DNA of 64,000 nt from Burkholderiales bacterium (GCA_035649495.1 DASRJL010000092.1:3588-67587), one strand, 5' to 3'. Shown: positions 119 to 31,076, counted from the stretch's first letter. Made by a program: numbers and translations. Notes: generated by a model not told the origin, from the sequence alone.

Positions 119-3100
119 TCAGGTTTCGCTTTCCTCCTCGCAATAGTCGATGTCTCCATCGGCATACGTAAAGAGCCAGTTCCTGATCGCGGCCAGCTTC
201 GCGTCATGCGGCCCGCGACTGGTAACAATGCGGGCGCCCGGCTCGCTGGACAGAAAGCCGTGCCGACGCAACTGCCTGATGTGCTCGGTCCGGGTCGACG
301 CGACAGAGCACGCGACGGAAACGGCCCCGCGCGCCCCGAAATCCCGCAGGGCCGCACTGACGAGAGCGTCGAAGGCCCGGGTATCCTCGCGGCTCACGAG
401 ATAGTCGACTATCCTGCCCCGAATCCCGCCTTTCCAGCGGGATTCGCGGGTCACCAGGTAGCCGACGACCTTGCCGTCCCGATCGGCGACGTATCGCGTA
501 TAGCCCCGGTTGGGGCAGCGATCAAAGCGCCAACTCAGAAACGCCTGATCGCGCACCATGATGCCTCGGTAGTCACGGGACGCCGTGCGCCACAACTCAT
601 CGAATCTGCCGTCGAAGTGGGGGATCTGCGAAACGGTGACGCTCCTGTCGGCGCGCAATCGAGCGCCGAAATCGAATGCCCTCGGAACGGGCCAGTAGAG
701 CAGACCGGAAACCCAGCAGAGCAGGGCATTCGCTCCCCGCGCCCTCAGCACTCCGCCCAGGTTGAGGCACGTCTTCAGGTCTTGCAATTGGTCGAGGTCA
801 ATCACCGATTCCATTGCCGACGCAATCGAATACATGGCTTCATTCGGCATCCCGAGCTTGATCCCGGGTGTATTTTCGTCGACCTGGTGAAGAAACCACC
901 CGGTGACCGTTCTGTGGTCGGGTGCGACGTGCGTATCGGTGCTCCACACGCCGGGCGTCGTTTCACCCTCGATCTTGAATCGTACGGGCAGAGCCCCGTT
1001 CCAGCCCACGATCTCGCCGCTGGATTCGAGAATGTCGACCAATGGGCCCTGGTCCGGACGATCCAGGTACTTCCACTCGAAAACCGCATCCAGAAGGCTT
1101 GCCGTCGTTGGTCCGAAGCACTTGGCGTACGAAGGCAATACGCCTCTCCTGTCGCCGTCCCGGTACCGTCGATACGTGTAAAGCGGGCCGTTCTTGGTCC
1201 GGTAGTGAGCCTCCTCGGTAGCTGCCAGGTCGCCAGGTGTCGACGAATCCGGCGCCCTTGAGGCCGATCCCGCACCTTGAGGCGGCTCCGCGCTGGCGAA
1301 ACTGCCGGGCGCCGCGCCAAACTCGCGGCCGACCGCCGCCGCCAATGCAGAGACGGTCGGGTTGTCGTAGATCAGCCGGGGGGTGAACTGGGTGTTTCTC
1401 AACCGGCGGCGCAGCCGGTTGATCAGGTCGACGGCCATCAGGGAATCGAGGCCGACCTCGAACAGGGAAGTCTCGTCCTCCAATGACTGCGGGTGCACGC
1501 CCAGGACCTGAGATATTTCCGTCCTGATCGTCGTAGCGAGCAATTGTATGCGCTCGACCTCAGGCGCGCTCGACAGACGTTCGAGTTCCGCGGCAAGCGA
1601 GGCATTCCGCCGGGACGCGCTGTCGTCTCCCGCAGTTTCAGTAGTCTGCCCCAGGCGCCCCAGCCAGGGGCAGGGACGCTGGGCCTCGGCGTGGACACGG
1701 AAAGTCGCCCAGTTCACGTCCGCCACTGCGGCGTGCGCGACGCGCTCCACCATCAGCGATTCCATCGCGTCGAGCGCCAGCGACGGGCCCAACAGGGACA
1801 GGCCGCGCCGGCGCAGCCAGGCGACGCCCTGCTCGGTCGAACTCGCCATCAATCCGAGTCCGGCCCAGGGGCCGTAGCTGATCGTCGTGACAGCTTCGCC
1901 CAGCGCCTTGCGCGACTCGGCGAGGCTTTCGAGGAAGGCGTTTGCAGCCGAGTAGGCAGCTTGGCTGACTGCCCCCCACGCGGAGGCGATCGAGGCCGTG
2001 CACACGAAGAACGACAGTTTGATGCCGCGTTCCCGGGTGATACGGTCGAGCAGCCAGCCGCCGATCACCTTGGGCCCCAGCGTTCGCTCCAGCTCTTCAG
2101 CATCGATGTTTTCGAGCGGAACGAGGCTTGCCACGCCCGCAGCGTGGATAATGCCTTTCAGCACAGGCAAGCCAGAGGCCTCGATCTCGCCGAACAGGCG
2201 CGAGACATCAGCCTCCCTGGACATGTCGGCGCGGATCACTCGAATCGTGCAATCATGGTTGTTCACGAGGTCCGCGATCGTTTCCTGCGCAGAATCCGAG
2301 GCCATGCGGCGGCTGGCCAGCACCAGGTTGCGGGCTCCCCGCGCGACGAGCCTGCGCGCCATTTGCAGACCCAGGTCGCCGAGGCCGCCGGTAATCAGAT
2401 AGGTACCATCCGCAGCCACCTCCAGGGGCTGGGCCGCGCCGGGCGGCTGCCTCCGTGTCACGCGCGCAACCCAGCGACGACCGTCGCGCAGGGCAATCTG
2501 GTCCTCGTCGTCCCCGGACTGGAGTGCTTGAGCCAGGCCGGAGGACACCGCTGCGGCATCGCCGTCGAGCGGCAGATCGATGAGCCCGCCCCACAGTTCC
2601 GGCTGCTCCATGGCGATAGCCCTGCCCAAACCCCACATCGGCCCCTGCGCCGGCTCGATCCGGTCCGACCCTGTGACCTGATGTACGCCGCGGGTTACCA
2701 CCCAGAGCTTCCCTCGCCAGCTAGACCCGATCAAAGCCTGTGCCAGTCGCAGCGTGCTCTCGATACCCAGCTTCTGCGCGAATCGCAATTCGTCGGTGCT
2801 TTCGACTCGTGTTCCATCGAGACTTCGCAAATGCACCACGTGCCCGAAGGGAGCCGATTCGTCAGCATTCGCTTCATCGAACAACCTGGCAAGGGTCTGC
2901 GGCGACCATGGAACCGGTTCATCGGCCGGCGCGCAAACGCACCGCTGACCGAGCCCCTCGAGCTGTCGGCAGAGCTCATGGGCGATGCCTTCGCGATCGC
3001 CCAGGACCAGCCAGGTTGCACGCCGCTGCTCGCGCGCGGCCGGCGGCAGAGCCTTTTGCTCCCAGACACTGTGGTACAAGCAGCTTTGCGGATTCGGCGC

Positions 3101-30800: not shown

Positions 30801-31076
30801 CTCCAGGCAGTTGGCGGGCGTATTGATCACGAACAACAGTCTGCCGTCGTCGGATACCGCCAGTGGTCTGGTCGGCACGCTTTCAAAGATGCGTTGTTTG
30901 TCGTGCCGCTGCCCGGCCACTCCCGAACCACACATGAACACCGGCTCGGCAATCGGTTGCTGCGTCACCTGCTGGGCCGACGCGGTCGTTGTCAACGTAC
31001 CCCGGCAGAGACAGACGAGCGCCAACGTACAAAGAAACCTGAGCAGGTGCTTCATGTTATTACCCGACTGGTTCAT
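27840..31076 (-). CDS. Secreted beta-propeller-repeat protein fused to a di-heme cytochrome c peroxidase/MauG-like domain
   Basis: Signal peptide MKHLLRFLCTLALVCLC...ASAQQ. N-terminal YVTN-type propeller repeats (LFVINTPANCLEIFEI, LWVVNHVSDSISIVRI). Two CxxCH sites (CASCH, CAECH) about 270 aa apart, with CCP/MauG-like context (LSEQDMDALTRYVFAL, AKIPHLRF). Its stop lies 1 nt from the downstream HO-like gene start. Start at ATG 31076 or 31055. Confidence 0.6.
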   Translation of the reverse strand: MNQSGNNMKHLLRFLCTLALVCLCRGTLTTTASAQQVTQQPIAEPVFMCGSGVAGQRHDKQRIFESVPTRPLAVSDDGRLLFVINTPANCLEIFEIGERVLTLRSTVSVGIDPVAVAQRTATELWVVNHVSDSISIVRIDGAPRVAATLQVGDAPWDVVFADHGRDRRGATHNRRNRAFVSAAFRGQHHPQFKTSFLLQNRLDAKNSERGEQIGRADLWAIDIGANTGDTEVAGVINLFTDSVRSLAVNRDGSQVFATAFKSGNRTAAVAVPFDALIGEKWSADGVGHPEPMLMVQQNDKGEWRDLLGRDWSEKLNFSIADNDLFIINAGSALQLGNLSAPKFNRHAVATTVKNLGTILFNTVYDARHNRLIVSGLESHNTQPMQDKLKERFVSNQLTVVDLNRKPAPGVHRINLDGREFQSARVTPGMALPGALHLDRDGDQILVASMGGNKLSQFKLSTDAGKPLQASGLKQQFLGKARDYGAAPAGGPVGFATDPMDRLLFVYTLFDNKILTYRITSTALDKISEYTMFSPEALDVRQGRQWLYDATLTSSNGAVACASCHVFGGSDKLQWDLSQKDKPLEIVELGYVAHPGREIPDLKTEIRAITFKQDPAAVKTGDRLPLGNTRVPVVFMGSKKAFAEALQKNTIDLKSPGLAYLEKGDADPRLFKYRGTFTTQPAWLLIDTPFFHPLKGPMLTLPLHGLTNSGALHFRGDMQGSAPGGGNHCPKGRSVEERALKEFNTPCDGSPGTFEGLMGGQRLSEQDMDALTRYVFALSYPPNPIRPLNNRVNGAGEKIFTAQKIAVDVTDFAKVLNKGPLIFTCAECHTTDRDADRFGTSKMMYSAPALTLQDAKIPHLRFLYDRAGFFRGDYRKANALVKQEGMVAKLRRAMYANFGFYKAEFDSAPRYLAVQPLDYYDELIHAIGYNHGAWFDSTMFATSAVWILNGEDPRRQTEETLRRYENLYEYLMAFDTDYFPMYGQQFTFRASDLNAIKSRTVGSAALLDKFRGFVDSIYSPEGHNGVQCHLSYYTTTATGRWQKIAIKSKNNLDTGNGESLARALLSLTPQLKPITFTCS

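Follow-up and report, generated by a model that had tools for sequence, protein, structure and literature searches.

A sulfotransferase- and flippase-linked polyketide synthase cluster with a tandem-GNAT end in an uncultured Burkholderiales-like bacterium

Several described pathways resemble, each in part, a gene cluster that we analyzed in a 64,000-nt stretch of DNA from Burkholderiales bacterium (GCA_035649495.1 DASRJL010000092.1:3588-67587). The whole stretch is called the window here, and all positions are its coordinates. The cluster joins a polyketide synthase (PKS) primed by a fatty-acyl-AMP ligase (FAAL) to an extender-unit cassette, a discrete sulfotransferase, and a Wzx-like flippase. 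The cyanobacterial olefin synthase (Ols) and the CurM terminal module have a FAAL-acyl carrier protein (ACP) start, a ketosynthase-acyltransferase-ketoreductase-ACP (KS-AT-KR-ACP) module that keeps its beta-hydroxyl, and a sulfotransferase dependent on 3'-phosphoadenosine-5'-phosphosulfate (PAPS) (PMC11837247). These features are common to both those systems and the window. However, the Ols and CurM systems carry an in-line sulfotransferase-thioesterase (ST-TE), and the sulfate leaves during decarboxylative release, whereas our cluster has a separate Sulfotransfer_4 protein, a RifR-like TE, two modules, and a PKS that ends in a tandem GNAT (GCN5-related N-acetyltransferase) domain. The hydroxymalonyl- and methoxymalonyl-ACP pathways of zwittermicin (ZmaN/D/G/E) and FK520 (FkbG-K) have homologues of the loader, ACP, acyl-CoA dehydrogenase, and 3-hydroxyacyl-CoA dehydrogenase found here, but in an aminopolyol or macrolide setting rather than a lipid and flippase setting. 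The first AT domain of the window's PKS (AT1) reads GHSAGE/NAFH, whereas the solved, hydroxymalonyl-specific AT of ZmaA has GYSFGE/GAAH.

Other parallels lie in how acyl chains reach amines and sugars. In mycobactin synthesis (MbtM/MbtL/MbtK), a GNAT-fold enzyme moves a long acyl chain from an ACP thioester to an amine. N-myristoyltransferase and Eis, which are tandem GNATs by fold match, also transfer acyl groups to amino groups. Unlike MbtK and these two enzymes, the GNAT pair described here forms the C-terminal end of a modular PKS and is apparently its release domain. Nod factors are made with the NodB deacetylase, the NodA N-acyltransferase, the NodH sulfotransferase supplied by NodPQ, and the NodU carbamoyltransferase. 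The likeness to our cluster is one of overall logic, and takes in a de-N-acetylated amino sugar, a special fatty acyl chain, sulfation with PAPS genes nearby, and, in relatives, carbamoylation. The window differs in having no chitin-oligomer synthase, a chain made by a PKS, and export by Wzx, with PIG-L and carbamoyltransferase genes seen only in relatives. Sulfolipid SL-1 of Mycobacterium tuberculosis is assembled by PapA-type acyl transfer, bears its sulfate on trehalose, and is exported by MmpL. SL-1 synthesis (FadD23, Pks2, PapA1/2, Stf0, MmpL8; see also PMC9989471) resembles our proposal in placing FAAL-primed PKS chains on a sulfated sugar with a dedicated transporter. In our cluster, by contrast, GNAT and Wzx would be the counterparts, and the PKS keeps its hydroxyls.

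The literature searched for the cluster contained no characterized match, the literature on the Sulfotransfer_4 family likewise gave no characterized cluster, and no record of an identical PKS product was found. The cluster belongs to a well-supported orphan family in which both the release domain and the link to glycan-export genes are unusual. It is quite possible, although we stop short of calling it probable, that it makes a hydroxylated, sulfated fatty-acyl conjugate that is linked to an amine through the GNAT domain and flipped by Wzx.

The locus and the co-inheritance of its core

Genes were identified with Pfam and NCBIfam profile scans, motif reading, PDB sequence searches, and an AlphaFold2 (AF2) model searched with Foldseek. 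The PKS lies on the minus strand, divergent from a plus-strand operon with the order FkbK-FkbH-ACP-FkbI-PPTase-TE-Wzx, where PPTase is a phosphopantetheinyl transferase. Across a 1.9-kb gap lie a desaturase-family gene (13075-13902) and then the FkbK-headed operon. The sulfotransferase gene is convergent with Wzx, and is followed by a PEP-CTERM gene, a VanZ-like gene, CysNC, CysD, and a coupled gene pair (27089-31076). Genes beyond 31.2 kb are unrelated (DUF72, 2-oxoglutarate oxygenase, cytochrome oxidase, AsmA, molybdoenzymes). GC content is ~64% over the window, with a drop to 56% at 12001-14000 against ~65% on either side. The core features are as follows.

119..12592, minus strand: megasynthase, FAAL-ACP-KS1-AT1-KR1-ACP-KS2-AT2-KR2-ACP-tandem GNAT, 4157 aa (Pfam and motifs)
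122..1207, minus strand: tandem-GNAT domain of the megasynthase, proposed off-loading acyltransferase (aa ~3799-4160 of the open reading frame)
8042..8899, minus strand: AT1 of the megasynthase, atypical acyltransferase domain (GQGLQ / GHSAGE / NAFH), candidate hydroxymalonyl-ACP selector
14493..15350, plus strand: FkbK-like protein of the 3-hydroxyacyl-CoA dehydrogenase family (Pfam 3HCDH_N, 3HCDH; orthologues in syntenic loci 72-89% identical)
15374..16423, plus strand: FkbH-like phosphatase/glyceryl-ACP loader (TIGR01686, 253.6 bits, cut-off 146.65; orthologues in syntenic loci 66-80% identical)
16408..16671, plus strand: discrete cassette ACP (Pfam PP-binding)
16682..17827, plus strand: FkbI-like protein of the acyl-CoA dehydrogenase family (all three Pfam acyl-CoA dehydrogenase domains)
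17799..18530, plus strand: Sfp-type PPTase (Pfam 4PPT_N, ACPS; order kept in L006, L089, L091, L092)
18676..19422, plus strand: type II editing thioesterase, TEII (Pfam Thioesterase)
19515..20951, plus strand: MOP-family Wzx-like flippase (Polysacc_synt 63.6 bits, Polysacc_synt_3 60.6 bits; 12 hydrophobic segments)
21005..21862, minus strand: discrete PAPS-type sulfotransferase, 285 aa (Pfam Sulfotransfer_4)

Numbers such as L006 are our handles for related loci. An earlier reading of this DNA (the original prediction) had named these genes and their neighbors, and each was found at or near its expected place. Some of the overlapping start and stop codons that it described are small gaps instead; FkbK and FkbH, for example, are 23 nt apart.

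The 4157-aa PKS gene call was taken from a European Nucleotide Archive (ENA) contig 99.93% identical to the window. Pfam matched one AMP-binding domain (aa 24-416), three PP-binding domains, and two each of KS, AT, and KR, with no match to the dehydratase (DH; PS-DH), enoylreductase (ER), or TE families. The first PP-binding domain directly follows the AMP-binding domain, which makes a FAAL-ACP start, and the FAAL part is 43-47% identical to FAALs named as such in their sources, such as PuwI and ArzL. Catalytic motifs are intact throughout (the KS Cys, GHSxGE, YSAAN in both KRs, and DS/NS in the three carrier domains). Profile matches and motifs therefore bear out the expected fusion of a FAAL to two KS-AT-KR-ACP modules without DH or ER.

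To see how widely this gene set is shared, we relied on the sulfotransferase, for which 175 relatives were found among 5.8 billion proteins. Neighborhoods were examined for 8 independent metagenomic loci (51-64% identity); a genome-contig scan with the same protein gave a single locus. In all 8, the sulfotransferase relative lies next to the PKS or its operon, in one of two arrangements. In the first, seen in L001, L004, L008, and L090, it converges on the 3' end of a homologous PKS whose terminus is likewise the GNAT didomain. In the second, seen in L006, L089, L091, and L092, it converges on the Wzx gene that ends the FkbK-FkbH-ACP-FkbI-PPTase-TE-Wzx operon; this is the window's own layout, and wherever the contig extends far enough, the PKS begins divergently from FkbK. 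That sulfotransferase and synthase stay linked in two arrangements is evidence that the core genes function together. With FkbH as the query, a metagenome scan found 13 loci (67-80% identity), with the same gene order wherever flanks were visible, and lower-identity FkbH relatives had no PPTase, Wzx, or sulfotransferase matches nearby. Orthologues of Wzx (50-65% identical) follow the TE gene in L006, L014, L017, L089, L091, and L092.

Gene and domain identities and co-conservation are direct observations. The PKS arm, the FkbH cassette, PPTase, TEII, Wzx, and sulfotransferase are one co-inherited unit, and the locus is a co-inherited gene cluster of an uncultured Burkholderiales-like bacterium. 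If the PKS arm and the sulfation and flippase arm were instead unrelated pathways that adjoin by chance, it would fit that co-conservation does not extend to CysD/CysNC, the desaturase, or the PEP-CTERM gene, and that a 46%-identical relative of the sulfotransferase is surrounded by pyruvyl-, glycosyl-, and methyltransferases in a glycan-type cluster where no PKS is visible. For the core genes, however, chance adjacency is contradicted by the linkage in all 8 loci and their two arrangements, and we find it scarcely credible. The proposal that these genes serve one pathway thus survives for the core, as the linkage outlasts rearrangement and independent occurrence of the two arms was not seen. 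It does not extend to the desaturase and PEP-CTERM genes, which are present here but not conserved with the cluster in other species. As core parts, these two and CysD/CysNC were rejected, being found only in near-identical contigs of the same species.

One such contig, L093 (ENA ERZ27257649 k141_1837414; 87,990 bp), is 99.93% identical to window positions 4493-25350; it differs at 15 of 20,858 bases, and within the first 2700 residues its PKS has 4 amino-acid changes. Gene calls on a second, L094 (ERZ27258587 k141_4482764), are the same as on L093. An exact FkbK occurs on 12 contigs of the assembly collection, two of them shown from ENA assemblies, so more than one assembly contains this organism. 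The nearest named sequences are fragments of Burkholderiales metagenome-assembled genomes (MAGs), and L001 is a Gammaproteobacteria MAG.

Other lipid-tailoring genes are found in relatives. L001 has a fatty-acid hydroxylase. At L009 (303-4755), FkbH is 80% identical to that of the window and no modular PKS is in view upstream of FkbK; in the place of the PKS are a discrete FabF-like KS, two soluble acyl-ACP-desaturase-like genes, and a cyclopropane-synthase-like (CMAS-like) methyltransferase.

The tandem-GNAT end and the acceptor of the chain

The last ~360 aa of the PKS gave weak Pfam GNAT matches in both halves, to Acetyltransf_9 at 12-99 (21.2 bits, cut-off 25) and Acetyltransf_1 at 227-274 (25.9 bits, cut-off 20.7). 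For an AF2 model of this domain made with 13 sequences (pLDDT 81, pTM 0.81), the best Foldseek PDB matches were tandem GNATs, namely MAB_4324, Eis, the clavulanate-pathway tandem GNAT, and N-myristoyltransferase (E ~1e-11, TM 0.5-0.6). A glucosamine N-acetyltransferase region was also matched, and 7q3a and 2wpx are among the PDB ids of the matches. Sequence similarity to the fold-matched enzymes is only ~10-15%, a PDB profile search with the domain gave nothing better than E>=0.75, and none of the NCBIfam models match the domain or its stand-alone relatives.

Close relatives of the domain number 13 among 5.8 billion proteins, all of them metagenomic fragments, and a profile search found 8735 more distant members (299 at E<=1e-30), most of which are stand-alone proteins of ~350 aa without a name. 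The domain also occurs fused, as KR-ACP-GNAT2, as adenylation-peptidyl carrier protein (A-PCP)-GNAT2, in complete synthases of 2960-4572 aa, and in a single GT2-GNAT2 protein, where GT2 is a glycosyltransferase. A condensation-A-PCP (C-A-PCP) module stands ahead of the terminal GNAT domain in L001, and gaps in tblastn alignments suggest the same for L004 and L090. The domain sits where a release domain would sit in every case. In L002 (1603-2473), an IS21-family element (IstB) interrupts the GNAT end of the PKS, and the remaining GNAT is a separate 153-aa open reading frame.

With a transferase fold at the release position and no TE domain, the simplest interpretation is that the acyl chain is transferred to a nucleophile. 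On the strength of the structural model, we favor release of the chain by acyl transfer to an amine, probably that of an amino sugar, over a free lipid. The literature searched contained no description of a GNAT pair that serves as a release domain at the C-terminus of a modular PKS.

The sugar comes into consideration through the neighbors of related clusters. In L002 and L003, a carbamoyltransferase directly follows the GNAT-ended PKS and is itself followed by a PIG-L de-N-acetylase and, in L002, by a Wzz-like protein. A Bac_transf phosphoglycosyl transferase is found in L006, L090, and L091; L006 and L091 also have Wzz, Poly_export, and an epimerase, and L006 also has PIG-L. Sugar-nucleotide genes similar to HldE and GmhB are present in L090, an NTP_transferase gene in L091, a Wza-like exporter in L001, and a glycosyltransferase in L092. 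These neighbors and the tandem-GNAT end suggest that the product is a conjugate joined through an amide and not a free sulfated polyhydroxy lipid. The original prediction had the latter as product; its sulfation and hydroxylation are kept in our model, while the free lipid gives way to the conjugate. That the locus is self-contained, as it also held, is probably not so, because relatives add glycan-type genes and nothing past the PKS stop at base 119 is visible. With the stop at that position, genes downstream of the PKS fall outside the window, and the 118 bases to the left of it are uninformative. By arithmetic from the alignment, L093 reaches ~17 kb beyond the PKS stop.

Several observations weigh against the conjugate that we propose. 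The GNAT domains otherwise known from PKSs are loading decarboxylases, and the GNAT halves here have no clear curated-family match. PIG-L, carbamoyltransferase, phosphoglycosyl transferase, Wzz, and Wza genes are all absent from the 64-kb window, so that a sugar acceptor rests on relatives and on unseen DNA to the left of the window. CysD and CysNC have no match in any other-species locus. Finally, AT1 retains the Phe of the malonyl-type xAFH motif, unlike the GAAH of ZmaA.

Release of a free sulfated polyhydroxy fatty acid or lipid, through hydrolysis by TEII or GNAT, with the sulfate on a chain hydroxyl and export of the lipid by Wzx, would explain why all the genes it needs are inside the window without a glycan gene. 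A discrete thioesterase is present and conserved, and L089 and L004 have no glycan genes in the visible flank. However, TEII is closest to editing enzymes, and a conserved 360-aa domain of transferase fold, placed where release would occur, favors transfer over hydrolysis. MOP/Wzx flippases normally act on carrier-linked glycans, and glycan genes recur in the loci of 6 relatives. We therefore consider a free lipid unlikely.

The fold matches would also allow a free amino acid or a polyamine as acceptor, which would give a sulfated N-acyl amino-acid lipid, with the GNAT acting like N-acyl amino acid synthases or MbtK-type enzymes. N-myristoyltransferase and Eis, which have a similar tandem GNAT fold, acylate amino groups; amino-acid chemistry is compatible with the C-A-PCP modules before the GNAT in L001 and, from the tblastn gaps, L004 and L090; and there are no sugar genes in the window. 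Such an acceptor would, however, leave the conserved Wzx and the recurrent PIG-L, Bac_transf, Wzz, and Wza neighbors unexplained, and NCBIfam models of N-acyl amino acid synthases did not match. We do not expect it to be the answer.

An amino sugar remains the acceptor that we prefer. In its fullest form, this proposal makes the fused tandem GNAT a new PKS release device that passes the polyhydroxy fatty acyl chain straight to a carrier-linked amino sugar. The outcome would be a sulfated glycan or glycolipid of the cell surface, carbamoylated in relatives, with export through Wzx/Wzz/Wza. We regard this as possible but, on present evidence, doubtful.

Extender unit, sulfate, and neighboring genes

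All four functions of the extender-unit cassette are present, and no methyltransferase family match, and hence no FkbG-type O-methyltransferase, was found among the cluster genes scanned; hydroxymalonyl-ACP is therefore the expected product. The AT1 motifs are kept in orthologues (GQG[LM]Q and GHSAGE, with NAFH in L001 and L079 and NAAH in L008), and those of AT2 are canonical for malonyl (GQGSQ / GHSVGE / [GH]AFH). AT1 is a plausible, if unproven, candidate user of the hydroxymalonyl unit. The cassette of the original prediction thus stands with all four genes, but the alpha-hydroxyls that it would add are not expected at module 2, which leaves AT1 as the sole plausible user. Use of hydroxymalonate at both modules was rejected, AT2 being canonical for malonyl.

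The true start of the sulfotransferase is M32, in agreement with its homologues, and its PAPS-binding motif is GMPKTGTHS. Its remote solved relatives are small-molecule sulfotransferases. The glycan-type setting of the 46%-identical relative hints weakly at a sugar substrate. A second sulfotransferase, similar to galactose-3-O-sulfotransferase, lies between FkbI and PPTase in L006 (14036-15013), which suggests multiple sulfations in some family members.

The sulfate might alternatively be a leaving group, if the discrete sulfotransferase and TE acted in trans like the ST-TE of CurM and olefin synthases to form a terminal alkene. The ingredients of an olefin synthase are at hand in FAAL-ACP-KS-AT-KR-ACP, a PAPS sulfotransferase, and an alpha/beta-hydrolase TE (PMC11837247). 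However, Pfam found no sulfotransferase domain in the PKS, whose C-terminus is the GNAT pair, and there is no ST-TE didomain. The best PDB sequence matches of TEII are RifR and RedJ-type enzymes (E ~1e-38), SrfAD and YbtT also matched, and the TE of CurM is not among the matches at E<=1e-5. An olefin route would also leave the GNAT didomain, Wzx, and the FkbH cassette without a role. We consider it very improbable, and in-trans olefin formation was rejected with the TE being RifR-like. The earlier argument that the sulfate is not a leaving group holds, there being no in-line ST-TE and a discrete TE of the RifR/RedJ editing type.

Further genes of the locus are listed below.

13075..13902, plus strand: membrane fatty-acid desaturase family protein, 275 aa (Pfam FA_desaturase, 47 bits)
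22838..23608, plus strand: PEP-CTERM protein (PF07589, 25.8 bits, cut-off 20.7)
24081..25991, minus strand: CysN-CysC fusion, sulfate adenylyltransferase GTPase subunit plus adenosine-5'-phosphosulfate kinase, 636 aa (Pfam GTP_EFTU, APS_kinase)
25991..26947, minus strand: CysD, sulfate adenylyltransferase small subunit (Pfam PAPS_reduct, 187.8 bits)
27089..27838, minus strand: AetD-like haem-oxygenase-like diiron oxidase, 249 aa (PDB AetD 8ji2, E 6.5e-45, full length)
27840..31076, minus strand: secreted ~1079-aa protein (signal-peptide-like N-terminus, beta-propeller-like N-terminal part, two CxxCH haem motifs, CASCH and CAECH)

The sulfotransferase locally adjoins CysD and the CysN-CysC fusion, an arrangement similar to that of NodH and NodPQ. 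These genes fit the need for PAPS but could equally be the organism's general sulfate-activation genes. They had been described as a dedicated PAPS supply; although they adjoin the sulfotransferase, they are not kept with the cluster in other species, and without co-conservation a dedicated role is unproven. The gene of a small VanZ-like membrane protein (23696-24070, minus strand) is directly 3' of CysNC, apparently in the CysD-CysNC transcription unit.

The desaturase has the His boxes HRYYAH/HRLHH/HNNHH and scores 71.8 bits against the NCBIfam DesA family (cut-off 400). It is an accessory gene, found only in the same-species contigs L093 and L094. The local GC content of 56% and its absence from all other-species relatives suggest that it was recently inserted between the promoters of the divergent PKS and FkbK genes. 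The PEP-CTERM protein is probably a bystander; its gene has its own strong terminator (23639-23652) and is absent from the loci of relatives. A second PEP-CTERM protein (237 aa; 45834-46547, plus strand) is encoded divergently from a set of riboswitch-led genes. These begin with a c-di-GMP-I riboswitch (Rfam RF01051, 79.8 bits; 45480-45567, minus strand) upstream of a FecR-domain gene (~44859-45440), which is followed on the same strand by an OmpA-family gene (44245-44862) and the gene of a 944-aa AsmA-family protein (41209-44043). No exosortase gene was seen among the open reading frames scanned, although no search aimed at exosortase was made.

AetD is a diiron enzyme that converts tryptophan to an indole nitrile. 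Its iron ligands are six residues (PMC10654658), and all of these can be read in the sequence of the 249-aa protein (D76, H79, E140, H170, E174, H177). The protein is an AetD-family enzyme outside cyanobacteria, with an uncertain link to the pathway. Its gene is translationally coupled to that of the 1079-aa secreted protein, whose own link to the pathway is likewise uncertain. The secreted protein has CCP_MauG and Cytochrom_C matches, both sub-threshold, and no sequence relative of it was found in the PDB. The pair recurs beside the L090 cluster, with the AetD-like protein 72% (245-985) and the secreted protein 66% (987-4196) identical.

A proposed pathway and what it would mean

From these genes, we infer the substrates, the acceptor, and the sulfate position as follows. 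The FAAL would adenylate a long-chain fatty acid and load it onto the first ACP, and in this species the desaturase may modify the chain. Module 1, with its atypical AT1, would extend the chain, possibly with hydroxymalonyl-ACP from FkbH/ACP/FkbI/FkbK, and KR1 would leave a hydroxyl. Module 2 would add malonate, with KR2 leaving a second beta-hydroxyl. The last ACP would then carry the thioester of a 3,5-dihydroxyacyl chain or, had hydroxymalonate been incorporated, of a 3,4,5-trihydroxyacyl chain. The tandem GNAT would move this chain from the last ACP to an amine, with a de-N-acetylated amino sugar on a lipid carrier as the most likely acceptor. A retained sulfate ester would be added from PAPS by the discrete sulfotransferase, with CysD/CysNC next door in this genome, and the Wzx-type flippase would carry the conjugate across the inner membrane to its outer face. 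The carrier domains would be activated by the Sfp-type PPTase and kept free of blockage by the RifR-like TEII.

If the model fails, the locus is one more orphan cluster. If it is true, a GNAT pair that replaces a thioesterase, reductase, or condensation domain would be a new PKS release mechanism. There are thousands of unnamed stand-alone GNAT2 relatives, and the fused, context-rich version could help assign a function to them. If the reading with a carrier-linked amino sugar is true, it would provide a direct link between assembly-line polyketide synthesis and a Wzx-dependent glycan pathway. Under the model as a whole, a family of sulfated, hydroxylated acyl conjugates would be present on the surface of uncultured Burkholderiales-like bacteria, and such amphiphiles could affect biofilm or floc formation and surface charge.

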